Shown here one piece after another: positions 1-27,950 of a stretch of 64,000 bases of DNA. The stretch is from Squalus acanthias (Eukaryota): assembly GCA_030390025.1 (NCBI GenBank), contig CM059428.1, positions 91,636,001-91,700,000 of the forward strand, in the 5' to 3' direction. The notes beneath the pieces are model-generated. The model was not told where the DNA came from, did no database searches, and worked only from the letters and a program-made list of their open reading frames with translations. Within the stretch, counting starts at the first letter, position 1; each line of letters begins with the position of its first letter. A program made the position numbers and the translations under genes.

Positions 1-312
1 ATTCACCTAGTTGCTGAACCCGGCACAATCAGCTGGCGTGTTTGTCGCACGACGGGCAACACGCTGAAAATTCTTAAAATGGGAAGAGCCAGTTAAAAAG
101 GGATTATGTGGGCAGTTAACAAGCTGTAAACTGCCTTAAGTGTCTCTCCTGCCGTTTGGTGTCGGGTCTGATCGGGACTCGCAGACCCGACACTTTGCAA
201 AGTTGCGTGGAGGCAGGATGGCGGCGGGTTAGCAACCTGCCGTCAATCATTTGGATTTTTACTCCTGCCCCGCCTCCAAACCCGCCCTCTGAGCGCCGGC
301 AAAATCGCGGCC
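1..312. mobile_element. End of a Harbinger-family element or MITE (runs off the window)
   Basis: Ends in AAAATCGCGGCC. Its reverse complement resembles the terminus of the Harbinger at 19241 (GGCC..GA.TTT TIR, shared GCGGGTTTGGAGGCGGG). Confidence 0.6.
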
Positions 313-469
313 AAAGACTTTGCTGTGTTCAGTGCAAGCAGCATTTCTGAAGGTCACGGAGTGAACTGAATTGGCTGGGCAGTGACATCTATGATTACAA
401 AAGTGAGTGGTTATACATGGACCTCCTATGTTAATGTCAGTCTAGATAGATGCTTCAAATCAATCCTCA

Positions 470-559
470 AAAGCAGAAAGTTATTTTTAAAAGATAAATC
501 AGAAGACAACTAAAGCAGAAAGTTATTTTTAAAAGATAAATCAGAAGACAACTAAAGCA
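470..559. repeat. Perfect 42-bp tandem duplication
   Basis: AAAGCAGAAAGTTATTTTTAAAAGATAAATCAGAAGACAACT twice, followed by AAAGCA. Confidence 0.9.
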
Positions 560-831
560 TAGTTCAGGATCTTTATTGTATGTAAAAGTAATTGAGCAAA
601 GCTTGCTTTTTTAATTATTGAAACAGGGAGTAAATTAATAAAATTCAGCTCTGGATTTGACTAAATATGTACAGTTTATGAATAAGTATTTACAAGCTGT
701 GCTAAATGTTTCTGTGGCTAGGTCTGGGCCTTGGTATAAACACTGGACCTGTTTTGCATCAATAAATGGGACATTGTACTTAGAACCTACCAAACACTTT
801 ATATTGTGTTAAGCATCCTACTGTTTCTAGC

Positions 832-1244
832 ATAAATAAAAACAGAAAATGATGTAAATACTCAGCAGGTCACCAGCATCTGTGGAGAGAGAAACAGAGT
901 TAACGTTTCAGGTCTTTATATTGTGGGCGTCGCTGGCATTTATTGCCCATCATGACTTTCTGTGATAGGGCGGAAGGCAGGAGTGATTAAATGACAAAAG
1001 GGATGCCTTCCAGCCTATCACAGACCTTCCCTTTTGTTCTTTCCTCCCCTCCCCCCTTTCCCTGCCTCTGTACTTGCTTAAAATCTGTTACATCTCTAAC
1101 ATTTTCCAGTTCTGATGAAAGGTCACTGACCTGAAACGTTAACTCTGTTTCTCTCTCCACAGATGCTGCCTGACCTGCTGAGTATTTCCAGCATTTTCTG
1201 TTTTTATTTTAGATTTCCAGCATCCGCAGTATTTTGCTTTTGTA
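832..1244 (+). mobile_element. Penelope-like element remnant: inverted partial pLTR plus pLTR, 14-bp TSD
   Basis: ~835-914 is the inverted copy of ~1128-1208. CTACTGTTTCTAGC flanks both sides (818-831, 1245-1258). Contains a hammerhead core. Confidence 0.75.
1108..1144 (+). ncRNA. Minimal type I hammerhead ribozyme motif
   Basis: AGTT-CTGATGA-A-AGGTCACTGACCT-GAAAC-GTT-AACT: intact CUGANGA/GAAA core, stem I AGTT/AACT, stem II AGGTC/GACCT, palindromic stem III AACGTT. Confidence 0.8.
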
Positions 1245-1362
1245 CTACTGTTTCTAGCTACTTGTTTCATTCAAACTTAATTTTTGAAAACTTTTATTTC
1301 ACGATGGATTCTTGTATTCACTGTATTATTGTTATATTCTTTAAAGTCTGCTGTTGAAGATT

Positions 1363-2031
1363 GGCCTGGAGTTTCCGCTAGGGTGCGCTAGTTTTTTCAG
1401 CGCAGTTCGCCCTAAATCAGCCAAAACCAGCGCAAAAGGTTGAAGAATTTCAAATGCAAATTACATCTAGCGCAAATCAAGTTTCCGTGATCTTTTGCGC
1501 TAGTTTAAAAAACATTGTGCTAGAAGCCGGCCACGCCCCCAGATCTAATTAATCACCATGGCGAGTTTCCGCTAATGCAGCCGTTTACGGGCCTTTGAGG
1601 AGGCTCTTAAATTAAGCTTTTTTTTAGGGGCATAGACACTATATTAGACACCTTTGAAAAGCTTTTAAATATTAAACATTTTTAATTTACTAGTAAATGG
1701 TTCTGTATAGTTTTTTTAAGTCATTTTCAGTTATTTAAAATCAGGTTACTCACAGGTGGTGGACTAGACACTCTGATTAAAAATGCTTATTTTTTGTGAT
1801 AAACCCATTTTCTGCTGTATTAATCAAACTGCACCAGGTTATTACTCTTAAATACATCAAGGAATATTTTTTAATGCTAAAAAAACTTTCTAAAACGCTG
1901 CCCAATTGTGCTGATTCATGGGAGATTTTACATTTGGCGATATGTAAATGAGTGAGTGGAAACTTGAGCAAAAAAACGAGTGCAATTAGCGTACAGATTG
2001 CTGATTTCGCCCAAAGTGGAAACTCTACCTC
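1363..2031. mobile_element. Harbinger-type MITE
   Basis: Imperfect TIR GGCCTGGAGTTTCC / GGAAACTCTACCTC, GCGC-rich subtermini, AT-rich core. Confidence 0.6.
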
Positions 2032-2145
2032 ACAGTATTCTGTTGTTTGGGCCTAAGCAAAGCTTATTTTTTTAGGTAGATATTTTAAACTATTTTATTG
2101 CTCAGAAATTACTATTGGTGATGTTAGTAATTAATAAATAGTTAA

Positions 2146-3470
2146 TTTTTTTTATTCGTTTATGGGATGTCGCTGGTAAGACAAGCATTTATTGCCCATC
2201 CCTAATTGCCCTTGAGAAGGTGGTGGTGAGCCGCCTTCATGAACTGCTGCAGTCCCTGTGGTGAAGGTACTCCCACAGTGCTGTTAGGTAGGGAGTTCCA
2301 GGATTTTGACCCAGCGACGATGAAGGAATGGCGATATACTTCTAAGTCAGGATGGTGTGTGACTTGGAGGGGAACTTGGAGGTGGTGGTGTTCCCATGCG
2401 CCTGCTGCCCTTGTCTTTCTAGGTGGAATAGGTCGCGGGTTTGGGAGGTACTGCGGAAGAAGCCTTGGCGAGTTGCTGCAGTGCATCTTGTAGATGGTAC
2501 ACACTGCAGCCAAGGTACGCAGGTGGTGGAGGGAGTGAATGTTAAAGGTGTTGGATGGGGTGCCAATCAAGCAGGTTGCTTTGTCCTGGATGGTGTCGAG
2601 CTTCTTGAGTGTTGCTGGAGCTACACTCGTCCAGGTAAGTGGAGAGTATTCCATCACACTCCTTACTTGTACCTTGTAGATGGTGGAAAAGCTTTGGGGA
2701 GCCAGGAGGTGAGACACTCGCCGCAGAATATTGAGCCTCTGACCTGCTCTTGTTGTCACAATATTTATGTGGCTGGTCCAGTTAAGTTTCTGGTCAATGG
2801 TGACCTGCAGGATGTTGATGGTGGGGGATTCGGTGATGGTAATGCCGTTGAATGTCAAGGGGAGGTGGTTAGACTCTCACTTGTTGGAGATAGTCATTGC
2901 CCGGCACTTCTGTGGCACGAATGTTACCTGCCACTTATCAGCCCAAGCCTGAACGCTGCATGCAGGCATGGACTGCTTCATTATCTGAGGAAATGTGAAT
3001 GGCACTGGACATAGCAGTCATCAGCGAACATCCCCATTTCAGCCCTTATGTTGGAGGGAAGGTCATTGATGAAGCAGCTGAAGATGGTTGGGCCTAGGAC
3101 ACTGCCCTGAGGAACTCCTGCAGCGATGTCCTGGGGCTGTGATGTTTGACCTCCAACCACCACAACCATCTTGCTTTGTGCTAGGTATGACTCCAGCCAG
3201 TGAAGAGTTTTCCCTCCGATTCCCATTGACTTCAGTTTTACTCGGGCTCCTTGATGCCACACTCGGTCAAATGCTGCCTTAATGTCAAGGGCAGTCACTC
3301 TCACCTCACCTCTGGAATTCAGCTCCTTTGTCCAAGTTTGGACCAAGGCTGTAATGAGGTCAGGAGCTGAGTGGTCAGTGAGCAGGTTTTTGGTGATTAA
3401 TTGCTGCTTGATAGCACTGTTGATGACACCTTCCATCACTTTGCTGATGATTGAGAGTAGACTGATTGAG
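2146..3470 (-). mobile_element. 5'-truncated non-LTR retrotransposon (CR1/Jockey-group family A), RT and 3' end
   Basis: ORFs 2981-3493 and 2202-2858 give DIKAAFDRVWH, VPQGSVLGP and MFADD RT motifs; internal deletions. Same family as 28129-30662 and 62060-63835. Confidence 0.9.
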
Positions 3471-4076
3471 CAAGTTTTCCATTTCTGCACCAATGTAATT
3501 TACTATCATATTAATATGATATTCTTGTATCTACAGTACTAGTAATGCAGGCATTAATCCCTTTACTTAGTATGGGTTAATGTCACCACTAAAATAGTAG
3601 ACAAAGGGATTTGCACAAGCATGTAATTCCCCCCCCCCTCCCCCCTCCCGACAGAATATAAAAAGTCAAATAGCACTTAGCTTCTTAAATGCATTCATAT
3701 GGATGCCTAGGGACCATGGGGGGAAAATTAGGTCGCGCCCCATTTGGGGCGCAAATATCGTCTGGACGCAAATATTAGCGCCTGGCGCTAATTATCGCCA
3801 CTGACTGGAAACTTCACTTTTACCGCCCCGGGAGGTGAGTGGAGCGCTAAATGAGGCGCTGCACACCTGTCTTAAGGCGCAAAGGCCGAGCAGTGAGGCG
3901 CTAACTCAGCGCGCGAGCGCAGCGCAGCTGGTGCCAGTTAGCGAGGGAACACAGACACACTGGCGCCGGCCACTTCTTAAAGCGGGGGGGGCCAACTTGC
4001 TCCCCAGCCACACCCTGCTCATTGCAGCCTTGAATCTCGGCCTGGAGAGACCTGTGAATCCATTTTGCTGCCAAGG

Positions 4077-4313
4077 ATGGAGAGGGTGAGAGAACGAGCT
4101 CATCGCTTCACCGAGCGGGCCTTGGATGCTCTGGTTGGCGCGGTGGAGCGCAGAAGATGTATACTCTTCCCTGAGAGTGGCAGGAGGCCTTTGCCACGCG
4201 AGTACAGAAGAGTGTGGAGGGAGGTGGCTCAGAGCGTCTCCTCCAGGAGCATGGTGCCCAGGACCCATACTCAATGCCGCAAAAAGTTCAACGACCTCAC
4301 TCGGGTCGTCAGA
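4077..4313 (+). CDS. Harbinger Myb/SANT-like DNA-binding protein (NAIF1/MSANTD-like), exon 1
   Basis: ATG at 4077; RFTERALDALV...VWREVAQSVSS...RTHTQCRKKFNDL trihelix signature; GTGAGT donor at 4314 (phase 0). Confidence 0.88.
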
Positions 4314-4455
4314 GTGAGTGGCTTTTTCTCAATACCTCTCCATCCCTCCATCTCAACCTCACTCTATGGCCAGAGGGTCTTAAAACCCCAATGCACAACA
4401 CTCATCCAACACCTATGGCCCTTTCATGAAACACACACACACATTCCACACTTTG

Positions 4456-4617
4456 CATACAGTAAGGGCTATTCACCTATGGGAGGCACATCAGGCAAGA
4501 CCATGGCTACATACAGTAAGGGCTATTCACCTATGGGAGGCACATCAGGCAAGACCATGGCTGCATACAGTAAGGGCTATTCACCTATGGGAGGCACATC
4601 AGGCAAGACCATGGCTG
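4456..4617. repeat. 54-bp tandem repeat x3 in Myb intron 1
   Basis: CATACAGTAAGGGCTATTCACCTATGGGAGGCACATCAGGCAAGACCATGGCT(A/G), near-identical copies. Confidence 0.92.
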
Positions 4618-4651
4618 TATATTTACTCAGATGCTGTCCTTTTTCTTACAG

Positions 4652-4814
4652 GCCAAGCTGGCGCATAATCGGAGACAGCAGCAACGGACAGGTGGAGGGC
4701 GGCCTCAGCTGCAACCCCTCAGCGATCTTGAGGAGCGCGTCCACAGGATTGTGGCAAGCCGGGTGATCGGTCCCGTCGCCACTGGAGACGCCGACCCCGT
4801 TCTGGACAGCAATG
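4652..4814 (+). CDS. Harbinger Myb/SANT protein, exon 2
   Basis: TTTTTCTTACAG acceptor; AKLAHNRRQQQRTGGGRP...LSDLEERV (typical TGGG motif); GTAAGG donor, phase 1. Confidence 0.85.
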
Positions 4815-4973
4815 GTAAGGTCATCACCTTTTTGTCCTCTGTCCTTCCACTTGTCCCTCACAACACCAGCCTTTGACACTTTCAATCCAACTTGCTAACT
4901 CGCTGCACTTATTCCTCCCTTACTGCCACCCTGTCCTCACGCTAAAGCCACTCTTGTACCTCCCTGCTTTCAG

Positions 4974-5950
4974 ATGGTGATTCACCAGCTGAGGAGACGG
5001 GCCCTGAAGCTGCCACTGGGAGTGAAGCTGCAGCCGAGGAGGAAGAGGAAGCCGGAGCATCAGTGCCACCCTCTCCCGAGGAAGCCCATGCCCACACTGG
5101 GAACACGCCTTCCCTGGAGGGGAGCAGGGGGGAAGGGTCTGATGAGGGTGAAGCTCCAGGACCCAGCGGGCTGCAGCAACGCCATGGGGGTAGGGAAAAA
5201 CGGGGGCCTTCTCCCCAGAGGGAGAGTAGGCCAGAGACTCCTACTGCAATGGACGCAGAGGAGGAGCGGCTGATCGCAGAAATGAACACCCAGGCGGTGG
5301 GCATGCACACTGAGCTCATGGGTGCAGTGGGAAGGGTGCCCGAATGCATTGAGTCACTGGCAAGGAGTGTGGAGCACTTCGCTGTAGCACAGGCGGATGC
5401 CACACTAACGCTTAGTGCTGCAATTCAGTCACTGGCTGCCGTGATCCCATCTCTGACTGCTCTCATGCAGACTCAGATTGAGGCCACGCGAGCACAGACT
5501 GCTGCCAACCTCGATGGTTCGTTCACATGTCCCCGGGGCTGTCACCGCGCCGCAGCAGGCCAGCAATCTGTTCTCCAGCAGATTGCTCCGGATGCTGAAG
5601 TGCTGCCCCGTGGGAGTGCCAGTGTGTCGGGCGAGCAGGGAGTTGCTGTCCTCTCTCACGATGACAGCATTCCTGCTGCCAACACTGTCACTTCTCCACT
5701 GCACTTGCCACCGCCTGTAGGACAGACTGCTGCCGCCCATGCAGAGTTGGTGCAGTCTGCAGCCGGGCCCTCCAGGCCCAGAAGTGGTCGAGGCCGTCCT
5801 TCAGGGGCATCTGCAGTGTCAGGGTCTGACGAGCAGCAGCCTTCCACCAGCCTTGCTGCAGCCACTGAGGTCCCATTATGGAGGAGCAGTAGGGTTAGAA
5901 GGGGGGAAGTGCGCAAGGGAAGGAGATCACCCTCGAAGGGCAAAAAGTAG
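4974..5950 (+). CDS. Harbinger Myb/SANT protein, exon 3 (spliced product 458 aa)
   Basis: TGCTTTCAG acceptor; the phase-1 join runs in frame into ORF 5063-5950 (acidic tract, coiled-coil-like segment, basic tail). Exons 237+163+977 = 1377 nt. Confidence 0.8.
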
Positions 5951-6260
5951 GAGGTGTGACAAAATGCTGGTCATTTTTTTATTAAAGGTCGAGGTTCATG
6001 GTCCAACTTTTGTTTAGTGTTTTGGACATTATCTCCAGGTTGTGAGAACCAGTTATGTTATTGACTTTTTTTGTGTTTATTTCTATGAGTTTGTCATGAG
6101 GAATTGACACACACAGAGTTTGTAAAATAAATAAGTTTCTGTATTCAAAATATACATGGTTGGTGTTTGGAATTATTGGTGCCTTGGCCGGCTTAGGGGT
6201 TGCGTGCTGGGTTCATTGATGTTGTTAGCAATGGCAGAAGCCATTTCCACAGCAGGGGCC

Positions 6261-7421
6261 CTAGAAGCGGCTTGCTATTAGCCGTTGATGGACGGCCCTT
6301 GCAGTTTCACCATTGTGGGCCGCCCTCCCGCCTTGGTGCTGCTGATGATCATCCTCCTCGTCCTCTTCCTCCTCTTCCTCCTCCTCCTCTGGTGGTGCTC
6401 CAAGGCCTGGTGGCATTGGCTGGGTCCTGAGGATTGCCATGTTATGCAACATGCAGCACACGACTACGAAGTTGGATACTCGCTCAGGCGAGTACTGCAG
6501 GGCTCCTCCAGAATGGTCGAGACAGCGGAACCGTTGCTTCAGCACACCGATTGTGCGCTCAATTATGTTCCTGGTAACTTGATGGCTCTCATTGTACCGC
6601 AGCTCAGCAGGGGTGTTGGGCGTACGGAGCGGTGTCATCAGCCAGGTGCTCAATGCATACCCCTTGTCCCCGAGAAGCCAACCAACTGGCTGATGCGGTG
6701 CCTCGAAAAGTTCTGCCACAGTAGTCTGGCGCAGGATAAAAGCATCGTGGCAGCTGTCAGGATAGTGGGCATTGACAGCGAGTATCAGCTGTCTGTGGTC
6801 ACAGACCAACTGAACATTCAAGGAATGGAACCCCTTTCTGTTCCGGAATTCCTCGGCATTCTCATGCGGAGCACGCAAAGCCACATGCGTGCAGTCAATG
6901 GCGCCCTGCACCATGGGGAAGCCCGCTATCCTCGCAAAGCCCAGAGCGCGGTCACGCTGCTTGTCTGGGGTCATGGGGAAAGAGATGAACTCTCGTCTCC
7001 TTTTGAAGAGGGCATTTGTGACCTGCCGGATGCAGCAATGCACCGCGAACTGGGAGATATTGGCGAGGTCCCCAGCAGCAGCTTGAAATGAGCCAGTAGC
7101 GTAGAAGTTGAGAGCCACTGTGACCTTCACTGCCACCGACAGAGACGTCGTGGACCTCAGTTGAGGCTGCAGATCTGGCTGCAGCAGGTGGCAGAGCTCA
7201 GTGACCACCTCCTTGCTGAATCGCAGCCTTCGCAAACACAGCTCCTCAGACATATGAATGTAGGAGAGCTGTTCACGATATACCCTGGGAGAGTAAGCTC
7301 TCCTGTACATACGCCTGTTGGCCCTCCTCCGTCTGGCCATCATTGCCACTCTCTCTCTGCGTCTCTGTGTCCTCCGATTCAGCTGGAGCAGGACAACGCC
7401 CCCAATCAGTGCAGCCCCCAT
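6261..7421 (-). CDS. Harbinger DDE transposase (HARBI1-like, DDE_Tnp_4), 386 aa
   Basis: First ATG at 7421; motifs ALNFYATG, GAIDCTH, NRKGFHSLNVQ, LLGDKGY, IERTIGVLKQRF, CCMLHN; no stops. Confidence 0.95.
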   Translation of the reverse strand: MGAALIGGVVLLQLNRRTQRRRERVAMMARRRRANRRMYRRAYSPRVYREQLSYIHMSEELCLRRLRFSKEVVTELCHLLQPDLQPQLRSTTSLSVAVKVTVALNFYATGSFQAAAGDLANISQFAVHCCIRQVTNALFKRRREFISFPMTPDKQRDRALGFARIAGFPMVQGAIDCTHVALRAPHENAEEFRNRKGFHSLNVQLVCDHRQLILAVNAHYPDSCHDAFILRQTTVAELFEAPHQPVGWLLGDKGYALSTWLMTPLRTPNTPAELRYNESHQVTRNIIERTIGVLKQRFRCLDHSGGALQYSPERVSNFVVVCCMLHNMAILRTQPMPPGLGAPPEEEEEEEEEDEEDDHQQHQGGRAAHNGETARAVHQRLIASRF

Positions 7422-7615
7422 AGTCTCTTTGCAAGCAAAGTAATGAAGGACAGCAACTAAAGTACTAGCGAAGTTAGGATCAGTAGGCAAAACTACCTCA
7501 CAAAGCGTTGAGTCAATGCAGAAGTCTCTCTTTCTCTCTCTCCGAATCTCTCTCTCTCTCTCAGAACGAGTGGTGCAAAAATGTCAACCACAGAAAAAGA
7601 CAGGAAGAGGCCCCC

Positions 7616-7755
7616 TTTAAATAGCGCCCAGCCCCACAGCGATTGATAGCGTTCCAGTCTTCCGGTCGTTGGATGCGCCAGGCGGTATGGCAGGGGGCGC
7701 CACTCAATTTCCGCTCCGGGGCGCCACAAGGGCGTTGCACCATGGAATGACGTCA
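7616..7755 (-). promoter_or_regulatory. Putative transposase promoter (TATTTAAA box and CRE TGACGTCA)
   Basis: TATTTAAA at 7616-7623 (-) and TGACGTCA at 7748-7755 upstream of the ATG. The TATA-like box is conserved in the 58458 derivative. Confidence 0.45.
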
Positions 7756-8716
7756 CAATCTGCGCGCGCAGGTGGTCGCAGCGGTAAAGTTTAGCGCCGC
7801 CGCACAATCTCTAGTTAAGTTCCCGAGCGGTGCAAACATCGCTGCGCCCGGGCGTTAGCGGCTTTGCGCCCCATTAGCGCCCTCTTAAGGCGCTAACAGG
7901 AGGCGCAACCAACTGAATTTTTACCCCCAAATATTTAAGCTGTTTGGGAAGGTACAGTAATTGACCCCACCTACTAGTTCAAAAATAACCAGGCTCTCCT
8001 AGCATTCCCAGCAATAGTTGAGGAGCGAACTATAACTCTTAGTTCTCAAAAGTTTGATTGCTGCCAAATAACTCTGGCTGGAAAATGGTCAGATTTGATT
8101 TTATCCTAATCATCCCAAGTCCTTTATTAATTAAATAGCCTGGCTCACGTATCAAGAATGACCACTTGTGCAAGCTACTAGAAGTCTGTCAGAACTTGTT
8201 ACCCAGCACAAGATACCAACTTTAAAAATGGGAGATGATGATGGGGGATAAAAAGGCAGCTGGGTTCGGATGCGCATAAGTTTCCCATGGAATTTGGAAT
8301 GTTCCAAGGTGAAAATGGTAACAATAGGTGCCAGATACGATTGCTCGTCCTGAGTCCAGATAGTATGGATCCTCCATCACCCTGCCTTTGCCCATACTTA
8401 AAACTTCCTTCTGTCTCCATACTGGTAGTGTGGACTTTAGATTGGAAAGTGTGCACGCATTGTTTGCAGCTGTATCCTTGTTAAAATAAAGTCCTCGTAT
8501 CTCTGCAGGTACACTTCAAATTGAAGAAATAGAATTGAAATTCAGTTGGACTGATCCTAATCATGAGAAGTAATGGTACCAAGATAACAAGCATTACACT
8601 TTTGGGACATTTAGGAGGAAAGTGTTGGTTGGAACTTCACTTTGAGCAGAAAGGACACCCTTCGATTGAAAACTACCCAAGTCCCTTATTAATTAAAACT
8701 GTTTCATTTTTTTCAG

Positions 8717-8833
8717 ATTAGCGGAAAGGAGATTCCACACAATCCCAAAATCCCCGTGTGGCTTCAGTGGTATGCAGTGCTGCATTTTATCTTCATTCTG
8801 GGTGTTTACATGAACTTACTTACCAATAAGTCC
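8717..8833 (+). CDS. AGMO: Alkylglycerol monooxygenase exon (ISGKEIPHNPKIPVWLQWYAVLHFIFILGVYMNLLTNKS)
   Basis: TTTTTTCAG acceptor, GTAAGT donor, 117 nt phase 0/0; matches recalled human AGMO segment VTGKEVP...YTVVQFALML. Confidence 0.85.
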
Positions 8834-9000
8834 GTAAGTATTTGTGCTTTAATGTAATACTGTTCTTTGTTCACTTTAAGGAACACAAAGCTCTAGATCA
8901 GTTCATGATTAGGGTCAATGGAACCCCAAAAAATAGTTGTACCGACCAATGTTTGGAAATAGATCTGAAAATGGTTGTCGAGCTGACTTTCAAAGATTAA

Positions 9001-9569
9001 GGGGCTGAATTTCCTGGCATTTACTCTCTGGGAATGCCCATTCCCTGAACACTAAGGTCAGGAGAAATCGGTTGAAGACCTGTGATCGTGGGTGTCTGTC
9101 CTCTTTATGTGGTCCTAGGATTTCTGGCGCTTTTTGAAATAGATAGACCTGGGCCTGTGCCTCCAATAGGTGCAGGTCCAGCATTGATAGATGAATGGAA
9201 AGTTCCCAACCCTCCCACCTTTGTATCCTGTTATAACGTTCGTGGGGTGCCTGAAGAAGCTGATGGTGGGATCCTCCTCAGGTTGGATGATGTGAGCAAG
9301 CAGAGACAGGCCCAACAGGCTTTTATTTTTCCTGCAGGTTGATTTTTTTTTTCCAAAACAGCAGCCAGGGGCGCTGAGGCCAACTAGCAGGCCCACTTCT
9401 CTTTCTGGCTATATTTCTCAACACAGGGTCCTGCGCTGAGGGTGTAACTGGGCTATGTAAAGGTCAAGCCCGTGTTAATGGCCCAGTAGCTCAGCCTGGA
9501 CAGGCACAGGGCAATTTTTGTCATGTTGCATCTCTCCAGCACCAGAGTAGGGGCAGGAAAATCAGCACC
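9001..9569. mobile_element. Degenerate Harbinger-type MITE
   Basis: GGGGCTGAATTTCCTG ... CAGGAAAATCAGCACC terminal inverted repeat. Confidence 0.45.
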
Positions 9570-10284
9570 AACCATTATTTAAAAGCCGGTCTGGCTGACT
9601 GTCAGACTTACTTTTAACATTATCATTCATCTTTATTATGAGACACATATAGTTTTCATTTATAAAATGTGAGGAACCTAGATAACTGACAGACAGGAAT
9701 AATGAATTACCAGAAAACCACTGATGAATCAGCCAAGATAAATAAAAGCTGTGTAAGCATCAAAATGGGTACCTAGCAGGTATCATCAGGGTCTCAATAA
9801 AGCTAAGAGGAGGTTATCAACATGCCTACTAAATTAGTCACTACAATGACAAGATACTTATTTTAACACACCATGGAATGTTGCCATAGTGCTGACCATT
9901 GAAGAGCTCTGCCAATTATAATGTGCTGGTTTTATGGCTGCTAATTTTCCCTTTTAATATTGAAAATTCCCAACCGTGGAACTTGCATCATGCTTTGATA
10001 ATTGAATGCATCAGTATTGTAGTTTTTTCAGTGAAAAGATGTGTAAGTATAATAAAATTATAATTTTTTCTTCATGGGAAGGATTTTGGGATTGAGTTAT
10101 GTTTAAAGGTTGTGTTTAAAAAGCAAATTAACTTGCGCAAGTTAAGAAAGGCCACAGACTGAAAGCATTGAACATGTGTATTGAAGCCAGACTGGCTGGT
10201 TTGTGGAATTCACAACTACAGGGCCTACTGTCTCATTCCAGTCGCATTAGTTATGATGACCCCCATTCATCAGCAAGAGATGTC

Positions 10285-10469
10285 AGGGTAGAAGTTAGTC
10301 TTGGGCGGTAGCGAAAAACAGGTGTTATCGCATCAGCCGCCTGTTGTACTCCCTGTCCGATATTCATTCCATTGAAGTTAATAGAACTGAATATTGGGCG
10401 CGGCGAGTAAGGGGTGGCCGATACGATGCCGCCCGCTTTATGTTACCGCCCAGGACGAATTCGTACCCC
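10285..10469. mobile_element. 185-bp palindromic Harbinger MITE, TSD GTC
   Basis: AGGGTAGAAGTTAGTCTTGGGCGGTA / TACCGCCCAGGACGAATTCGTACCCC; central TTCCATTGAAGTTAATAGAA quasi-palindrome. Confidence 0.7.
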
Positions 10470-11258
10470 GTCCTTTCTACCTCTCATCCCAAGGCAGGAG
10501 CAGAGGAAACCGGTTTTATTGACAAGTCCCTTGGCTCGGATACAAAGGGACACATTGGCAGTCAGGTTTTGAGTAGAGGACTGTCAGACACGACTCTTGG
10601 CCTGGAGCTGGAAGCTATAAAATGCTGGAGGGCAGTTTTTGCAGTTAGAAATAATCTGAAAGAAAGGTAATGTAAAAAAGAAGTAAGGCGTCCCACAAAA
10701 GGGACAGTGTGTGTGTGGTTTATTATTTTTTAACACGTTTTCAAGAAGAGAATTGAAATTGAGCTAAGCAAGTGGAATTTGCTTCGACTGTTACTCTGTG
10801 ATATCCGGCCTTGCCTCGCCCAAATGTTTAAGTCTTCCTACAGGACGATTGGAGAAATGCATGTGCGGGCACGATATGCAGTTTGTATTAAAAGGGGGGG
10901 TTCCTATTGTTACATTTTGGCGTTATGTCATTGTATAATTAGTTATTGGGCAGGACGGGCACACACTTCAACATAAGATGCTTAGTGTTACGGGAGTGAC
11001 TGGCAAAGCTGTACCTGAGAGAATATCTCAAGCAGTCCTGAAACTTGTAACAAATGACTTTTACTTTAGTTATTCTAATTCACTTAAGTTTCTTTTATCT
11101 AATTATCGCTTTGGTGTTCCTAACATTGTATTAGTTACCATTCAGTTCACTAATGTATTTAAAATGGGTCACCCAGCTAGTACTGCAGCCCCTGCCGACA
11201 CATAGCTGAGTTTACCTTTTTATTTCCTGCTATAGAAGTGAAACTCTGTTAATACATT

Positions 11259-11912
11259 GGGGGAAATTTTCAACTCCCCACGAGGGGCGGAAGAGAGTCT
11301 GAGGGGTGGGTTAAATCAGCAAATATACAAACCCGACCCAAACTCGCCGCGAACGCACCTACTTTCATTTTAACGGCAGTGGGTATGGGAGGGTCTGAGG
11401 AACCCGCTCTGGAGAGGCGGGTCTGTAATTATAATATGTTAATGAGGTTCCATTCCTGAGATTTTGGCAGTCATTTGAATTTAACGCTGGCCAGCTGGGT
11501 TTCCCTGCACTTGGTACACCCGACAGCTAAGGGAGGCGGGGGCAGCCGGATCCAGCAGGTAAGCGCTTCGTATGGCACTGCTTTTGGGCTACTAGGAGCA
11601 GGAGTGCTTCCCCTGGCCCCTCGAGCAGATCTTCTGCCGCGATTGTCCAATCCCCGGTCGCCCCTCCTTCTCGATTGCCGATCCGACTCTTATCACCATC
11701 CCCCCCCCACCCTACCAACTTGTGCCTTCTACCGCTTGCTTTCCCGCCCAGATACTAGCCAGTGTGTCAATCTGGCTGGCTGCTTGGCGGGAGACGGAAT
11801 TAAAAAATGATAGAGGTCCTGCCGTTAAATTTAGTCATACCGCTGCGTTCCCAGCATTTACAGATTAACCCCTCCACAAACACGCCCCCACCTCTCTGTA
11901 AATAACGGGGCC
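11259..11912. mobile_element. Harbinger-type MITE, TSD ATT
   Basis: GGGGGAAATTTT start, GGGGCC end, ATT on both sides; related to 50157-50960. Confidence 0.55.
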
Positions 11913-11935
11913 ATTGTATCTTTGGGAAGACTTTT

Positions 11936-12350
11936 GAGTGTCAGCTTTGCTCAGTGGTAGTCCTCTCACCACTAAATCAGAAAAGTTCAAGATCCATTCC
12001 AGGACTTGATCAAATAATCGAGGCTGACAATTCAGTGTAGTACTGAAGCAGTGCTGCATTGTCAGTGGTGCCATCTTCCAGATGGAACTTTAAACCAATG
12101 CACTGTATGTCTGTTTAGGTGGATGTAAAACATGCTTTTCAAAGAAAAGTAGGGAGTTCTCGGCCAACATCACAAACAATCAGATTAGTTGCTCTTCTCA
12201 TTTGTTTTTGTGGGACCTTGCTCTGCGCAATTTGGTTGTTGTATTTGTCTGCATAATATCAGAGTAATTTATTGGTTGTGAAGTGCTTTGGAATGCTCTG
12301 AGGATGTGATAACAACATGCAATATAAATGCAAGCCCTTTCTTTTCTTTT
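11936..12350 (+). mobile_element. tRNA-derived DeuSINE (SacSINE1-like), old copy
   Basis: GCTCAGTGGTAG A-box head, CAGTGTAGTACTGAAGCAGTGCTGCATTGTC Deu-like core, ATATAAATGCAAG tail. Confidence 0.7.
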
Positions 12351-12764
12351 CCTTTGATCAGCAGGTTCCCGCTACTACACTGACACACTAGGATATTTTA
12401 TTTAACTTCTTCACGGCTCATTGTGCAACATTAGCATCTTGAAGCATAATGGAAATGAATTGAAATGATTCTACTTACCCATAGAAAACAAAGTAAAATC
12501 AAAATGTAACATTAATTTGCATATTCAATGTGCAGGATTGTAGAATGAAATAACATTAATATTTAGTTTAAATGTTCTAAATGGACATCATACTGTCATG
12601 GCCTGATGATCTACTCCATACTCTATCTGTTAAATTGACACACCATTTTGCATTAACCTTGTTTCTAAATCTGTTTAAATCCTTTAATCCAATACTCTTA
12701 ACCTCAGTTGTTCACAGTAAGTTTCCTTTTGCAGATTGATTTTTGTTTTTGCTTGGTTAAACAG

Positions 12765-12847
12765 GCTCTATCAGAAATAACAATCCTCTTCGGAATTGGA
12801 TATGTTATCCTGACGCTGACTTCTGTTGGATTGATGATGGAGAACAG
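12765..12847 (+). CDS. AGMO: AGMO exon (ALSEITILFGIGYVILTLTSVGLMMENR), GC donor
   Basis: AAACAG acceptor; matches recalled human ALSQVTLLLRVCFIILTLTSIGFLLDQR; 83 nt, ends CAG|GCAAGA, phase 2. Confidence 0.88.
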
Positions 12848-13177
12848 GCAAGAGTTATTCTTTTGCATTACCAAAATAATTGGTTCCTCTTTCTTTTTGT
12901 CCTTCTCCCTTGCTTCCCTTAATTCATCATTTTCTTTCTGTTTATCACTTCTTTCCTCATTTCCAATAAATTGGAGTTGATTTTCGTCTCTGTTGCACTC
13001 CAAAAGCAGCTGCGGAGGGGCTGTGGTGTTACACTAAATTAAATTAGGTGGAAATCAGCTCTGCTGGATTTTCACCGATTTTCACCCCTGCACAAGTTCC
13101 CAGTTGGATCTGGAGTTGGCGGTACAGCCCGAATCTGAAGTAGGTGGGAGCTTCATTAAAGTAATGCATTGAAGTGT

Positions 13178-13272
13178 CAGCCTAGATTATGTGCACAAAT
13201 CTCTAGAGGGTGACTTGAACCCACGACCTTCTGACTCAGAGGCAAGAGTGCTAACACTGAGCCAAGGCTAAC
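13178..13272 (-). mobile_element. DeuSINE head fragment
   Basis: Reverse complement has GGCTCAGTGTTAGC and GGGTTCAAGTC pol III boxes. Confidence 0.6.
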
Positions 13273-14506
13273 ATCTGAAGAGAAAGAACCATGGAGGGAT
13301 GCCATACAGGCAGGATGTCCAAGATTTGCGCTATGCCCTCTAACTGATACCTATGTAATTCATCTACTGACAGATGTGAAATCACCTCACATTTGCACAC
13401 TATTAGTGAAGGCTCCTCTTCCTAAGGGAAACTGCAACAGCAGACCCCCTATGGTGTCACTAACATATGTGAATTCCTGACTAGCCATTATCATGCCTGG
13501 TTTAGAAGCACTCTAATTACAGAATGTCATGCATTATGTGATACTGTATGAAAGAAGGCATACCAGGATAATCAAGAGCCAGTATTGCCTGATAGACTGT
13601 ACCTGTCATGATGCCACCAACCATTTCTGCAAGCCCTGGTACACCGACCTGGCCAAGATTCTGTGAACCTGTCTTCTCAGAATCTTGCTCAGCAAAAAAG
13701 GCAGATGCAGAACGGTGCCATCTTCTGCGAGGCCTGTAAGGACAGCTGCAACTGCAATGAAGCCTAGGGCTCTCAGGTGCAGGGACAGTAATGGTCAGCT
13801 GTAACATGAAACTTGGCTGTATCTCCTGATGGAGTGCTGACCCATGGAGATAACACCATGGAATGACATAGAGCGTTCTCCTTGACTTCAGCAGCCATAA
13901 AATGAAGTGCTGTGCTGTTTTGTCTGGTCTGCAGACTTATCCCTGCTCATGGGTCCTCTTTCTCCTTTTGTCTGGCAGTTCTTAATTCCCTACCCTTTGA
14001 ACCTGGACAAAAATAGCTAATGGGTTGAGATGTCTTTTGAGACACTCCATAGGCTTTCTGAATTTTTATTGCTTTCGTGTGACTTACTCCTTTAGTTGAT
14101 TCCATCCCTTTCAAATTTGACTGACACAATTTTCTTCTCCTGTAATTAATACCCTTCATAGACTGTCTGAGTTTACACCTGGTGATGTGAATAATTATGA
14201 AAATAACCTCAGACCATAGCAGTAAGTGCAATTACCACTTGACCTTTCAGTTGGCATTTGTATTAGTTCTTAACCATTTAGAAATGACTTAGACCTGTAG
14301 TTGAAAGTTGGCCTCACTACATTAGTCTTCCATTGTTTTTCTCAGTCTCGCATGCTTTGCATCTTTTTTCTGTTTCCAATATCAGATCATTTTTACACCT
14401 TTATCTTTCTCCATTATGAGTAAAGCTGCATGTTTCTGCTCATTTCTGCAATTTAGTTTTGTTAATGTTCACCAATCATTAATTGTGTTGCTTCCAATGT
14501 CAACAG

Positions 14507-14603
14507 ATCGGGAGCAGCTATTCTGGAGACCATCCGATGCTGTGTTTTCTTTTTTGTTCCTGAACTGGGTTTCTTGACTGGTCCTTTAAAACTAGCAACT
14601 GAA
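14507..14603 (+). CDS. AGMO: AGMO exon ((R)SGAAILETIRCCVFFFVPELGFLTGPLKLATE)
   Basis: CAACAG acceptor, phase 2 compatible with the previous exon, GTAAGT donor; matches recalled human PKAAIMETLRC. Confidence 0.88.
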
Positions 14604-16058
14604 GTAAGTGATTTTTTTCATTTAACTGAGTACAGTAATAGAAAAAAAAACCTGTTAAAATGTATCTGTGGCAGAATTTGTAAAATGGCTTGTAATAGAG
14701 ATTATAAAGTTGCATTACTGTCCTTGCATGCTGAAATTATTTCACACAGGTTCCCACTGGTTAGAGTATTATAGTTTTGGATACCCCATTATAGAAAGGG
14801 TAAAGCAATGGCAAAGGTGCAGCATAGATTCACTAGGAAATTACAAAAGATAAAGGGTTGGATTTTCTCAGTAGTGGGCTTACCACTGAAATTGCACCAT
14901 AACAGCAGTTCCGCCTGTCAGTGTAACTTTGCTGAGAACTAGCCCAATTTCCTCAGTGTACCCTCAATACATATTCATGGTGGACTCTTGGCACTATTAA
15001 TACCATTTATTGGCAGACTGCCTCTGGGGAGGGGAGGAAAATCCAGTGCTGCTACAGCTGAAATGGTCAAAGTGGACAATTTGTGCCTCTAAACAATGTG
15101 GCTCACTGCAATACTGGAGGATGGTGCTTCTTCAGGCACTGAGCCCACAAAGACTCTTTAGTAGACACCAATGGGGGCGCAAGATGGTCTTAAACAGTGG
15201 AAAGGTTGTCAGATTTGTTGTAAATGACATGTTTCAGCTGCAAATTGACAATGTGGGGAATTATCACATGAAAAACAGGCAGGGTGGGGGAGCGGGGAGT
15301 GAAAGTTGTACAAATCTAAAACCCAAGCTCACTTAGCAGCAGCCCGCCCCTGCCCGGGCTTGAAACCACCCCGCCCACAGACTCAGCACCTACCTGTTGC
15401 TGCGGCATCCTGGTGAGCCAGCATTCCCTGGCCATTTCATCACACGCATGCTGTGGAGTTAAAACTACCGCGGACTATTGCCCCCGCCCCCCGCTCTGTG
15501 CGGGTGAGAAAGGGGAAAATCCTGGCCAATGAGTAGGGGCAAGGTAGGGGAATGCATGTGCTAAAGAGCAGAAGAATGAACTCCAAATGGAAGCCTTGGT
15601 AGTTGAGGGAAGAGCTCAAAGTCAGTAAGCGAGTGATCTGACTTTATTGTGAAAGGGGAACCCGGATGGCGGGAGTCATTTGGCAACAGGTTCAGGTCTT
15701 AGTCAGCTGAGGATTTCCTTTGAGTTGTGCCTACATCTGTCACAATTGCTTCATGACGATAGCGCAGCCTTCTGAAATATTGCCAAAAGGTCCAACGCCT
15801 GTTTTAGGTGGTTGCCCGGGACACCTTAAAAAAAAAAAGAAATGGGCCTAATGAATTTAGTAGTGGCTCGAATACACATGCAGATTGGGTGCAGATCGTC
15901 CTGCTGCTAAATTTGTGATTATGCCCAATAAACGGGTGCAACACATATCAATTTCTGCCTCTATTTCATCTGAGTGGTGTGTCAATGACAAAGAGTCATT
16001 AATTTAAAATTGTCAGTAAGAGACGGAGGAGAGAAATTAGGAGAAATTTCTTTACATT

Positions 16059-16822
16059 GGGCCAGAAATTCGGCTCTCCGGCTTCCCGCGGGTGCAAGGA
16101 TCGCGCGCATACTTACATACCGCGCCTGCCGTTGTGCTTCGGGCCTGCGTGGAATTCGGCTCCTGGGCCTCCTGCAGCTGCCGGTGTGCAGTGCTTGCGT
16201 ATCCCAGGGGCGCAGTTAGTTCGAAGCGTCCCCTGGGATCACGTGGGCCATGGAGAGCCAATCGGAGCAGGGAATCTTCATTCATAGATTTTGATAGGAA
16301 GACCTGTCAAATCTATGAATAGAGAACGGCCCCAAAACTTCACTAAAACTTCAAATACATTTTTTTTTAAAAATCACATTTTTGAAATAACTATAAATTA
16401 CATAAATTAACTACTTTAAACAAAAATTTAAATTTTTGAAAAAATTAATTACACTTTTTAACGGTGCTAAAAATAAACTTACCTTTCTTTAAAGTATGTA
16501 AAAAAATAAACCTGTTGAAAAAATGTTTAAATTGTACTTAATTCACCACTTACCTTGTTAAAAGCAGGCCTTGCACCTCCTTTTTTCCTGCGCAGCTTCT
16601 CCATACTTACCCTCACGGAGAAACCTGAAAAAAAAACGAAGTTCGCTGCGTGCGCGCTGCCTCTCCGGCGCACGCATTCGACCTCTGAACCCCTTCCTTC
16701 AGGGGAACGGAAGTTCCGGTTTCCAGCGCATGCGCAGTGCATGCACGATACCGGCACTTTCGTTGGGTTTACGGGTGAGTACACAGCGCGTACTCACCCG
16801 TGGAGACCCGAATTTCTGGCCC
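16059..16822. mobile_element. Harbinger MITE family H, copy 1
   Basis: Perfect 15-bp TIR GGGCCAGAAATTCGG; internal hairpins; inverted homologue of 42079-42839. Confidence 0.85.
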
Positions 16823-19785: not shown

Positions 19786-20357
19786 ATGGGTGCCACTTCT
19801 GCTGTCTCACCTTAGACCTCAGAATCGGACCAAGATGAGCCCCAGCACCAACAACACCAGCCACACCAGCAGCAGCAACCACAACAGCAGCCTTCTGCTC
19901 AATGACCTGATGCTCCACAAGAGAGAGGGGGGTCAGCACAGGGCTGCACCGCGCCGGAGGCGATACCCCCAACACAGGTATACAGGCAGAAGATGAGCTT
20001 CCTGGACATGATTGAACAGCAGTGCCTCAGGAGACTCAAGCTATCGCGCCAGGTCGTGGCAGACATTTGTAGCTTGCTGGAACAAGACCTGGTGGTCAGA
20101 GGACCGGGTGGACATGCCTTACCAGTGGCTGTCATAGTCACCACCGCCCTCAACTTCTTCACCTCAGGCTCCTTCCAGGGATCTGCATCAAACATTTGCA
20201 GGACCTCGCAGTCTGCTGCCCACTGATGCATCACCCAGGTGACCGATGCCATGTTTGACAAGTCAGCCAATTATGTAAACTTTGCCACTGATGAAGCCAG
20301 TGTTATTGAGTGAGCGCTCGGCTTTGCGGCTCTGGCTGGCTTCCCACAGGTGCAGGG
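19786..20357 (+). pseudogene. Harbinger transposase pseudogene, 5' half
   Basis: [12 protein letters not shown]...[11 protein letters not shown]...AGFPQVQG with stops; truncated before the first catalytic Asp. Confidence 0.85.
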
Positions 20358-20509
20358 AAGTTGTGCAAAGCCATTTCCCAGGTAGCGGGCAAAAATGGAC
20401 AAGACTGAAAAGTTGTGCAAAGAAATACATTTATGTGCGTCATAAATATAACTAAAACATAACTAACATTTTGTCATATACCCATGTGCATATCCTTATG
20501 TATCTAGGA

Positions 20510-25865: not shown

Positions 25866-27950
25866 AACAACAATAACATATTTATATAGTGCCTTTAATG
25901 TAATAAAATGTCCCAAGGTGCTTCACAGGAGTGTTATCAAAAAAACCACAATTTGACACCAAGCCATACAAGATTATGTTAGGGCAGATGACCAAAAGCT
26001 TGATCAAAGAGGTAAGTTTTAAGGACCGTCATAAAGGAGAAAGAGAAGTGGAGAGGCGGAGGGAATTCCAGAGCTTAGGACCTAGGCAGCTGAAAGCACA
26101 ACCACCAATGGTGGAGCATTTAAAATCGGGGATGTTCAAAAGGCCAGAATAGGCGGAGCAGAGGTCTAGGGGGATTATAGGGCTGGAGGAGATTACAGAG
26201 ATAAGATGGGCCGAGGATGAGAATTTTAAAATCGAGGCATTGCTTAACTGGGAGCCAGTGTAGGTCAGCAAGCACAGGGGTGATGGGTGAACGGGACTTG
26301 ATGCGAGTTAGGACACGGGCAGACGAGTTTTAGATGACCTCAAGTTTAAGGAGGGCAGAATACGGTTGGAATAGTCAAGTCCAGAGGTGGTAAAGGCATG
26401 AATGAGAGTTTTGGCAGCAGATAAGTTGAGGTAAGGGCGAAGACGGGCGATATTACGAAGGTGGAAATGGGCAGCCTTAATAATGGAACGGATATGAGGT
26501 AGGAAGCTCAATTCGTGATCAAATATGACACCAAGGTTGCGAACTGACTTGGTCAGCCTTAGACAGCTGCCAGGGAAAGAGATCGAATCAGTGGAAAGGG
26601 AATGGAGTTAGTGGTGTGAACCGAAGACAATGGCTTTGGTCGTCACAATATTTAATTGGAGGAGATTTCTACTCATCCAGTGCTGAATGTCGGACAAGCC
26701 GTCTGATAGTATAGAGGCGGTGGAGGGTTCGAGAGAGGTGGAGGAGAATTAGAACTGGCTATTATCAGCGTACATGTGAAAAGTCACGTTGTGTTGCCGG
26801 ATGATGTCACTGAGGGGTAGCATGTAGATGAGAAATAGGAGGATAGATCCTTGGGATACACCAGAGATGACAGTGCGGGATCGGGAAGAGAATCCATTGC
26901 AGGTGATTCTATGGTTACGGCTGGAAAGATGGGAATGAAACCAGGCGAGGTCAGTCCCATCCATCTGGACGATGGTGGAGAGGCTTTGGAGCAGAATTTT
27001 GTGGTCAACAGTGTCAAAGGCTGCAGACAGGTCCAGAAGGAGTGGAAGAGATAGATTACCTTTGTCGCAGCCAATTAGGATGTCATTTGTGACTTTGGTA
27101 AGAGCAGTTTCTGGCAGGGGCGGAAGTCTGATTTGGAGGGATTCAAACAAGGAGTTCTGGGAAAGATGGGCACGGATTTGGGAGGCGACAACACGTTCAA
27201 GAACTTTGGAGAGGAAAGGGAGATTGGAGATGGGGCGGTAGTTTGTAAGGACAGAGGGGTCATGGGTTGGTTTTTGAGGAGAGGGGTGATGATAGCAGAT
27301 TTGAAGGAAAGGGGGACAATACCTGAGGAGAGCGAACCGTTAACAATATCTGCTAACATGGGAGCCTGGAAGGAATGTTAGGTAGTCAGCAATTTAGTAA
27401 AAATAGGGTCGAGAGCAGGAGGTCAGTCTCATTGACAAAATGAGCTTTGAAAGGGCAAGAGGGGAGATAGGAGAGAAATTAGAGAAACATGCAAATTTAG
27501 AGTTAGGGCAGGGGGAAAATGGAGATGAAGTAAAACTCGGTGGGCTAGGGGGAGGGAGGGAATTGAAAGCAGAACAGTTGAATGGATATTGTCGATCATT
27601 TTAACAAAGAAGTCCATGAGCTCCTCACATTTATTGTTGGAGGTGAGGGATGGGGAGGCAGGTTTGAGAAGACGGTTAGTAAAGGAAAAGAGAAGCCTGG
27701 TGTTATTTTTGCCATCCTGGATGATCTTAGAATAGTGGGCGGTTTTAGTGATGGAGAGCAGGACCCAGTAGTGCTTTATATGATTGAGCCAAATCTGGTG
27801 ATTGATGATTAGACCAGTTGTCCACCAAAGATGTTCAAGTCTGCGTCCCTTGGACTTAAGGCAGCGGAGTTGAGGGGTAAACTAGGCGAATCGACTAGGG
27901 TGAGTGTAACGAATTTAGAGGGGACAAGGGCATCAAAATTAAACAGTGAC
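25866..27950 (-). mobile_element. L2-clade LINE, degenerate RT and 3' end
   Basis: ETALTKVTNDIL, LLLDLSAAFDTVDH, HMYADNSQ and FHLRNIARLRP motifs; GTT-type tail; frameshifted. Confidence 0.85.

Follow-up and report, generated by a model that had tools for sequence, protein, structure and literature searches.

A full-length two-gene Harbinger transposon in Squalus acanthias: a probably decaying copy within a large family that has a younger sister lineage

A Harbinger transposon lies at positions 3718 to 7927 of the 64,000-nucleotide stretch of Squalus acanthias DNA analysed here (the window; assembly GCA_030390025.1, contig CM059428.1). It was first described, from its letters, as a young and possibly still mobile two-gene element, and the question that the locus raises is whether this copy is a candidate for activity or an ageing member of its family. 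The element is full-length (4,210 bp) and carries two genes, a DDE transposase and a Myb/SANT gene. We think it quite probable that it belongs to a large Harbinger family (about 3,000 copies of its subfamily, A) whose wave ended long ago, and that it is now decaying neutrally with an impaired transposase. The label of candidate active element suits a sister subfamily, B, better, because B copies are younger, near-identical and in many cases have both genes open.

Structure of the element and its two genes

The features of the element are as follows (window positions).

3718..7927, no strand: Harbinger (PHIS) DNA transposon, subfamily A; boundaries common with other copies, internal 24-mer in at least 3,053 copies
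3715..3717, no strand: left target-site copy CAT, mismatched with right copy CAA
7928..7930, no strand: right target-site copy CAA, two of three bases matching the left copy
3718..3729, plus strand: left terminal inverted repeat (TIR), 12 bp; base 3723 is G, in the family A
7916..7927, minus strand: right TIR, 12 bp, of the family type
3718..4000, no strand: CpG-rich left subterminal region, CpG o/e 0.96
7620..7927, no strand: CpG-rich right subterminal region, CpG o/e 1.12
4077..4313, plus strand: Myb/SANT coding exon 1 with the Myb domain, Myb_DNA-bind_5 (PF13873), E 8.1e-10
4454..4621, plus strand: tandem repeat of 54-bp units within intron 1, with three units in this copy
4652..4814, plus strand: Myb/SANT coding exon 2; acceptor 4652 used in run X3, donor 4814 spliced to 4974 in both X1 and X3
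4974..5950, plus strand: Myb/SANT coding exon 3, low-complexity with a basic C-terminus and no Pfam match; its junction with exon 2 occurs in X1 and X3
7421-6261, minus strand: DDE transposase, 386 aa, stop-free ORF, DDE_Tnp_4 (PF13359), E 2.7e-37
6894-6896, 6744-6746 and 6558-6560, minus strand: catalytic residues D176, D226 and E288, all three present

The boundaries 3718 and 7927 hold to the base: element bases 1-4210 align in 27 of the 29 other best-matching loci, and the remaining two (L026 and L028) are cut at one end. The preliminary description had recognized a two-gene Harbinger by its two TIRs, an uninterrupted transposase with D-D-E motifs, a three-exon Myb/SANT gene encoding 458 aa with canonical splice sites, and CpG-rich subtermini, and had contrasted it with decayed Harbingers elsewhere in the window. 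All of this structural reading holds. The TIR pair, GGGGGGAAAATT on the left and GGGGTAAAAATT on the right, is imperfect, with 10 of 12 bases matching here and 11 of 12 in the family. At TIR position 6 (base 3723), A is present in 73/77, 20/20 and 55/55 other aligned copies of three partly overlapping sets. The subtermini stand out from the remaining window, where CpG o/e is 0.40-0.44. As an age marker, CpG richness proved weak, CpG transitions accounting for only 3 of the 12 singleton changes in this copy. A run of C following position 7626 is 3-5 nt shorter here than in all 28 other aligned copies, and the deletion shows again in comparisons with contigs of other organisms. We found no empty paralogous site that would settle the original target-site duplication (TSD) of this copy; its right flank is near-unique in the genome.

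The catalytic residues of the transposase are the commonest at their positions among 120 homologues, and nearly all named entries among the best 120 protein matches are annotated as ‘putative nuclease HARBI1’. This copy carries five private or rare transposase changes: P44S, R91T, G222D (base 6757), A282V and R378H. Residue 222 sits in a YPGSCHD motif near the second catalytic aspartate (D226), and in a structure model with a pLDDT of 89.8 it falls in a loop that links strand 213-221 to a helix whose first residue is D226. A single-sequence fold reached a pLDDT of only 38.8, and a fold search with the better model returned no match at E <=0.001, its top rows being DDE transposases and integrases at E 0.01-0.1. 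Position 222 is Gly in 104 of 113 homologues, and the base responsible for G222D is common to only 17 places genome-wide. Judged from these comparisons, the transposase of this copy is likely impaired through G222D. As a counterweight, both ORFs and the three catalytic residues are intact, and Asp occurs at position 222 in 5 of the 113 homologues, although many of the homologues have decayed.

The Myb/SANT gene (4077-4313/4652-4814/4974-5950) has GT-AG borders at both introns, and the length of intron 1 differs among family copies by 54-bp steps. The last base of exon 1, at the splice donor (4313), is A in this copy and G in nearly all others of the family. Both junctions had been proposed as a check on splicing, and they fared differently: intron 2 (4814/4974) is joined GT..AG in RNA-like contigs of two studies (runs X1 and X3), while the intron 1 junction 4313/4652 was not seen in the RNA-like contigs examined. 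Those two runs come from other organisms, their RNA nature is guessed, and their contigs cannot be assigned to the 3718..7927 copy. One contig of X3 has a GT..AG joint 3834/4652. The donor at 3834/3835, in the context GGAG/GTGAGT, is conserved in 66/77 and 54/56 aligned copies and likely closes a non-coding first exon within the left subterminal region.

Divergence and age of the copy and of subfamily A

Exact genome matches to an internal 24-mer give at least 3,053 transposase-bearing copies of subfamily A. All 60 consecutive matches fetched on one contig (C1) cover 3,354-4,210 of the 4,210 element bases, with both ends present in 53, and a family of few autonomous copies plus MITEs is ruled out by these near-full-length loci together with the number of internal matches. 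Left ends occur 12,352 times in the genome, against about 6,500-6,600 long copies; by extrapolation, about 6,500 long copies make up roughly 0.7% of the genome.

The 3718..7927 copy is about 99% identical to its family and differs by 24 substitutions from the majority of its subclade, within the 15-29 found for its sisters. The near-identical copies that a young element was expected to have did not appear: the nearest copy is 0.70% away, and the best genome-wide matches are at least 0.88% away. The same holds across the A copies examined. In the alignment of 49 from C1, which leaves out 11 of the 60 loci (seven without both ends, four outside 3.9-4.7 kb), no copy has a neighbour closer than 0.38%, apart from a single pair whose flanks are shared. 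For the least-diverged A copy, the 19 best matches fetched genome-wide are each at least 19 substitutions from any other, and one A locus, L114, lies only 6 substitutions from its group majority. Among 98 aligned A copies, out of at least 3,053, there is no near-identical pair at independent sites; a sample of this size could miss a very young A subclade. Both genes are open, with catalytic motifs, in 10 of the 49.

At a shark mutation rate, the private divergence of A copies (0.35-0.5%) corresponds to millions of generations; the rate is that of another shark (7e-10 per generation, 95% CI 1.4-14.1e-10), and assembly errors inflate private differences. Private transposase changes in A copies are compatible with neutrality (93/132 non-synonymous or stop, p 0.12). 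Transposase differences between A and B carry the mark of purifying selection (dN/dS 0.26, core 0.17, p 6e-9), as do those of the Myb/SANT gene (dN/dS 0.19). For Myb exon 3, a dN/dS of about 1.9 hinted at positive selection but was not significant (30:6, p 0.26).

It is quite unlikely, in our view, that the 3718..7927 copy is a working autonomous element that is still transposing. Its open ORFs, D-D-E residues, canonical splice sites, family identity and confident structure model all speak for activity. Youth and mobility fit poorly with its 24 substitutions from the subclade majority, a number like that of its sisters, and with the mismatched TSD, G222D and the TIR and donor changes; nor is there any sign of daughters, since no copy closer than 0.70% was found. 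Relative to its family, the copy probably carries private inactivating substitutions, the candidates being G222D, TIR position 6 and base 4313.

A younger sister lineage and matches in other organisms

Sister subfamily B is ~95% identical to A and has at least 1,451 copies. The median nearest-neighbour distance is 0.38% among 17 B copies against 1.15% among 48 A copies (p 1e-8). Between B copies at independent sites the difference can be as small as 2 of ~4,200 bases: L195, for example, is 2 substitutions from each of L156, L166, L191 and L201. A set of the 17 youngest B copies, 15 of which were fetched as best matches to a single locus (L156), lies a median of 4 substitutions from its majority, and 15 of the 17 have a perfect TSD; loci L154, L169, L176, L177, L193 and L198, where no two-ended element is present, do not enter this set. 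Both frames are open in L166, L191, L192, L194, L195, L197, L200, L201, L204, L205 and L209. With near-identical copies at independent sites and both genes open, lineage B has the sequence profile expected of a currently active element, and it is the likeliest latest source of working proteins. Since the ends of B are nearly the same, it could in principle move the 3718..7927 copy in trans.

We consider it very unlikely that the near-identity of B copies is an assembly artefact of collapsed or polished reads, with no part of the family especially recent. Repeats of 4.2 kb at thousands of copies do invite mis-polishing, the Myb frame is shortened to 218-262 aa in several B copies, and an exceptionally small distance separates one A copy from its group majority. 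Against this, A copies of the same assembly have not been homogenised, shared changes build up stepwise through the B tree like a ladder, and the young B copies have distinct flanks and mostly perfect TSDs.

Sequence about 99% identical to the element is also present in other organisms, which may reflect horizontal transfer, kinship or contamination. Fourteen runs from eight organisms and eight studies contain 51-62% of the sampled words (runs X9-X11, with a share of 0.05-0.07, are not taken as evidence), and contig pieces reach 878 nt with 5 differences (X12), 508 nt with 2 (X16) and 286 nt with none (X17). That these organisms carry a haplotype foreign to this genome is ruled out, as this genome has the marker bases itself, at 1,451 and 3,532 places, in B and in intermediates. 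When window positions 1200-16200 were compared with contigs of X12, X13, X16 and X17, the longest pieces listed fell only in the element and in a CR1-like LINE. The near-unique bin 8214-8714 is uncovered in these four runs; missing contig cover is not informative, so we do not count it for transfer. Depth ratios among ends, interior and LINE, set beside the counts of left ends and long copies in this genome, were likewise left aside: trace DNA and a low copy number would explain them equally well, and depth does not measure copy number.

If the family, A and B together, had recently passed from species to species through horizontal transfer, both its size and these matches would be explained. 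We regard this as possible but somewhat unlikely. The word content of the 14 runs and the long near-identical pieces favour it, as do the best annotated protein match, only 71% identical, and reports of Harbinger transfer in fish and sea kraits. On the other hand, sharks evolve slowly, and most differences in those runs are also found between A and B copies within this genome. X16 has A-like and B-like pieces side by side, as expected of trace DNA from a similar genome, and a family present thousands of times per genome needs only a minute amount of contamination to be picked up. Poly(A) raw reads of X18 (same sample as X17; about 12% of the run) have essentially nothing on the element except a microsatellite.

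Target site, proposed mechanism and known Harbinger systems

A perfect 3-bp TSD flanks 118 of 142 family insertions, counted without MITE loci and without L004, L072, L121, L181 and L188 (loci that have shared flanks or repeat another). Their flanks define a 15-bp palindromic target, A(A/G)A(C/G)WC-WWW-GW(G/C)T(T/C)T, whose central 3 bp are duplicated. Its arms have A at -7 in 90% and C at -4 in 66%, and the motif persists without hotspot and tail sites. Among the 118 perfect TSDs the core is WWW in 84, TNA in 33, TWA in 29 and CWG in 1; C before and G after the TSD occur together in 54 and at least one of them in 103, with the full C-TNA-G in 6.

By analogy with zebrafish Harbinger3_DR, the spliced Myb/SANT protein would bind the element ends, take the DDE transposase to the nucleus and recruit it to the TIRs, and the pair would then excise the element and insert it at the preferred palindrome, where the central 3 bp would be duplicated. 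Transposition of Harbinger3N_DR requires both proteins according to PMC2836001, and the purifying selection seen between A and B in each of the two genes is consistent with a two-protein need.

The element has the features of the PHIS / PIF-Harbinger superfamily, namely a DDE_Tnp_4 transposase, a Myb/SANT ORF, 12-bp TIRs and a 3-bp TSD. None of the group-defining targets of Han et al. 2015 (PMC4482050) characterizes this family: the TWA duplication of the strict PIF/Harbinger group is found here in 29/118 cases, the CWG of NuwaI in 1/118 and the C-TNA-G of NuwaII in 6/118. Two ORFs (DDE and Myb/SANT), TIRs starting GG/GGG and a similar length (4.2 kb against 4.5-4.7 kb) are shared with NuwaI and NuwaII, the GGG start and a length of about 4.5 kb being those of NuwaI in particular, and C before and G after the TSD agree with NuwaII. 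In this comparison by features, the element lacks their defining TSDs. The same paper found no PHIS element in sharks.

Parallels also come from Harbinger3_DR and Harbinger3N_DR, which, according to PMC2836001 and PMC3016246, likewise have separate transposase and Myb-like genes, a 3-bp TSD and an extended 15-bp palindromic target. The arms here, of AAACAC/AGACAC type, equal the left arm of the Harbinger3_DR target AAACACCWGGTCTTT, whereas the three duplicated bases are A/T-rich and only loosely constrained (WWW 84/118, CWG 1/118). Harbinger3_DR had to be reconstructed, and in the reviews consulted this zebrafish element is the vertebrate Harbinger shown to transpose; here there are thousands of full-length copies, some natural ones with both genes open. 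We entertain, as a rather unlikely reading, that lineage B is a naturally working vertebrate Harbinger with hundreds of full-length two-gene copies, which would still insert at the 15-bp target with a free A/T core, jump in cells without reconstruction, swap segments with A and have recently crossed into several marine species.

Two surveys report no Harbinger in sharks or the elephant shark, though Harbinger is among the common elements in a reef-shark annotation of 2025. We found no description of this family in the literature searched, which was the main text of openly accessible papers. The family offers natural, unreconstructed protein pairs, with thousands of full-length copies, a very young branch and >100 mapped target sites, and it opens a direct route to the question of how recognition of the arms of the 15-bp target is separated from that of its 3-bp core; the 3718..7927 copy, an ordinary ageing member, is of value mainly as a pointer to it. 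Large recent vertebrate expansions that combine two-gene copies with expression and with non-autonomous derivatives are likewise described for Harbinger-Snek of sea kraits (PMC8437027) and for Harbinger bursts in newts (PMC5741667). Those reach 8-12% of the genome, against roughly 0.7% here, while the full-length fraction is high here (both genes open in 10/49 A copies), compared with 269 intact copies in L. colubrina (PMC8437027).

Structure and age of the window copy

The two-gene Harbinger element of the window is, in our judgement, a real, ordinary, ageing member of a known transposon kind. Its architecture agrees with the preliminary description: 27 of the 29 other best loci in its own genome align from end to end over the full 4210 bases, and both terminal inverted repeats (TIRs) are present at 12 bp, with imperfect match. 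The transposase is uninterrupted and retains catalytic residues D176, D226 and E288, the Myb/SANT gene has GT-AG sites at both introns, and the subtermini are CpG-rich (observed/expected 0.96 and 1.12 vs 0.40–0.44 elsewhere). The annotated features are:

3718–7927, Harbinger element, ends shared with other copies in this genome
7421–6261, minus strand, transposase ORF of 386 aa, DDE_Tnp_4 match (E 2.7e-37)
4077 (start), three-exon Myb/SANT gene, introns 4313/4652 and 4814/4974, predicted splice product of 458 aa

The target site duplication (TSD) is mismatched (CAT/CAA). Among the best 120 protein matches the closest has 71% identity, and those naming a species are mostly from cartilaginous fishes, which makes a shark or ray the likely host.

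The description of the element as an intact, candidate active one stands in part, since both frames are open and the D-D-E residues are kept, but the transposase, a TIR and the end of exon 1 are altered. Compared with its family, the copy differs at TIR position 6 (G for A) and where Myb exon 1 ends (A for G at its last base), its C run at 7626 is shortened, and its transposase carries the changes P44S, R91T, G222D, A282V and R378H. Glycine occupies position 222 in 104 of 113 homologues and aspartate in five, making this residue more constant than D226 (80 of 113, in a partly decayed homologue set). A confident alignment-based structure model (pLDDT 89.8) places it in a short loop running into D226, and only 17 places in the genome have the window copy's base at this site. 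We infer that its transposase would be impaired.

The suggestion that the copy is young and possibly still mobile is only partly borne out by the genome search for near-identical copies. Of 77 other copies aligned with it, the closest differs by 0.70%, and it has 24 substitutions relative to the majority of its seven-member subclade (members' range 15–29). Even for the least-diverged copy of its lineage, A, the 19 best genome-wide matches fetched come no closer than 19 substitutions to another copy in the set. Among the copies examined, no near-identical lineage A pairs lie at independent sites; L003/L004 and L071/L072, the only such pairs, share flanks. At the epaulette-shark mutation rate of 7e-10 per base per generation (upper limit 14.1e-10; PMC10587355), divergence of 0.35–0.5% corresponds to about 2.5–7 million generations, a rough upper-side estimate because it borrows another species' rate and because divergence is inflated by assembly errors. 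One lineage A locus, L114 (= L121), has just six substitutions from its group majority vs 14–25 in 19 relatives, pointing either to late insertion or to a polishing artefact.

Family size and target choice

The family has two genes, defined ends, a 3-bp duplication and a target preference, and we found no description of it in the literature searched. Harbinger bursts are reported in sea kraits (PMC8437027) and newts (PMC5741667), expression and one transfer in teleosts (PMC9179366), and in a reef shark Harbingers are listed among the common DNA transposons (PMC12498223), counter to earlier statements of absence. The size of the family, its young branch (lineage B) and the looseness of its target core make it a Harbinger variant deserving moderate attention.

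A 24-mer from inside the lineage A transposase occurs 3053 times in this genome and the left end 3571 times. The first 60 internal matches on contig C1 all belong to long copies (3354–4210 of 4210 bases covered), 53 with both ends. In 49 aligned copies from this contig, the transposase is open in 25, the spliced Myb gene in 28, and both, with catalytic motifs, in 10. Among 30 left-end matches, 17 are MITEs (closing within 1.5 kb). Thirteen, about 893 bp long, are related to an element more distant from this one; the other four measure 726–745 bp, and three of them are internal deletions of the window copy's family. The window also holds an 884-bp MITE (58458–59341; ends 80–82% identical to those of the Harbinger, TTT duplication), decayed Harbinger pieces comprising one transposase and two Myb fragments (19894–20361, 22627–22851, 35635–35826), and LINE-type reverse-transcriptase fragments (2202–3499, 26749–30209, 62283–62975), one about 220 bases left of the Harbinger.

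Perfect 3-bp TSDs flank 118 of 142 independent full-length insertions. Their classes (WWW 84, TNA 33, TWA 29, CWG 1) differ from the definitions given in PMC4482050 for PIF/Harbinger (TWA), NuwaI (CWG) and NuwaII (C|TNA|G). In folded target arms, position −7 is A in 90% and position −4 is C in 66%; of the 118 sites, 74 left arms and 64 right arms combine the two (background 5.6% per site). The pattern persists when two recurrent targets are excluded, which leaves 98 sites. This arm is the one found on the left of AAACACCWGGTCTTT, the Harbinger3_DR consensus quoted in PMC3016246, whereas the core is unlike its core. The recurrent targets are:

A single base close to where the second (endonuclease) ORF of a CR1-like LINE begins, in LINE sequence fitting one target arm well: 10 of 142 insertions, both orientations (L005, L027, L071, L076, L081, L093, L098, L116, L130, L136)
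An 8-base repeat of ATAGAGTC type: 16 of 142 insertions (L010, L021, L024, L030, L068, L073 and ten others)

Lineage B and sequences in other organisms

Of 18 listed sequencing runs, 14, which come from eight organisms and eight studies, contain 51–62% of the words sampled from the element. In the six of these 14 that were aligned, long pieces are mostly 98–100% identical, some being 95% identical with B-type bases, and most differences also segregate within this genome. Horizontal transfer, kinship and contamination could each account for this near-identity, because sharks evolve slowly and, with thousands of copies per genome, even trace contaminating DNA shows up.

Probes for bases seen in those organisms hit 1451 and 3532 places in this genome, belonging to lineage B, intermediates and A/B mosaics. 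The family has a copying history of successive lineages. Lineage B lies about 5% from the window copy, and its left end, GGGGTAGAAATT, has 8781 matches. Purifying selection acts on both genes between A and B (dN/dS 0.26 for the transposase, 0.17 for its core and 0.19 for Myb exons 1–2), whereas the changes private to single A copies look neutral. Judged by median nearest-neighbour distance, B is the younger lineage (0.38% in 17 copies on C1 vs 1.15% in 48 A copies, p 1e-8).

With 1.5 kb of one B copy, L156, as query, 39 other loci match at 99–100%, and the whole element was recovered from 18 of 20 fetched. L156, L166 and 15 of these differ from their own majority by a median of four substitutions (0.09%); selected by likeness, these 17 represent the young tip of B, not its average. 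Perfect TSDs flank 15 of the 17, and in at least 11 both genes have open frames. Their divergence is below the epaulette-shark diversity quoted as 0.2% (PMC10587355), so the youngest B insertions could still be polymorphic. Any recent movement was probably B-driven.

Many copies are intermediate between A and B (L159, L160, L165, L170–L190), and the lineages differ by only 1–2% over window 5518–6118 vs 5–9% over the transposase; together these are signs of recombination between A and B. B copies differ in how many times an 87-nt unit is present in Myb exon 3 (equivalent to window 5119–5206), so that their proteins have 459, 488, 517 or 575 aa.

Splicing and expression

In Harbinger3N_DR, transposition requires the transposase together with the Myb protein, which binds the TIRs and takes its partner into the nucleus (PMC2836001); by analogy, the Myb protein here would do the same, and both proteins would be needed. 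Intron 2 is spliced in related organisms, being joined exactly at GT..AG in contigs of X1 and X3, runs on organisms A and B from two studies, which are guessed to be RNA and whose contigs are not assignable to the window copy. Of the junctions predicted in the preliminary description, 4814/4974 was thus recovered, but 4313/4652 is not among the joints listed. Contigs of X17 leave intron 2 unjoined. In X18 (organism I, poly(A) raw reads, about 12% of the run) no reads fall on either gene, and nearly all of the 117 aligned reads lie in a microsatellite bin.

In X3 a conserved donor at 3834 is joined to the exon 2 acceptor at 4652, skipping the Myb-domain exon; this joint suggests that a non-coding exon lies upstream. 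The normal acceptor for this donor could be a pyrimidine-rich CAG at about 4026–4028. Both X1 and X3 also have a non-canonical joint, 6939–7314, that omits 374 transposase bases and is probably a deletion derivative.
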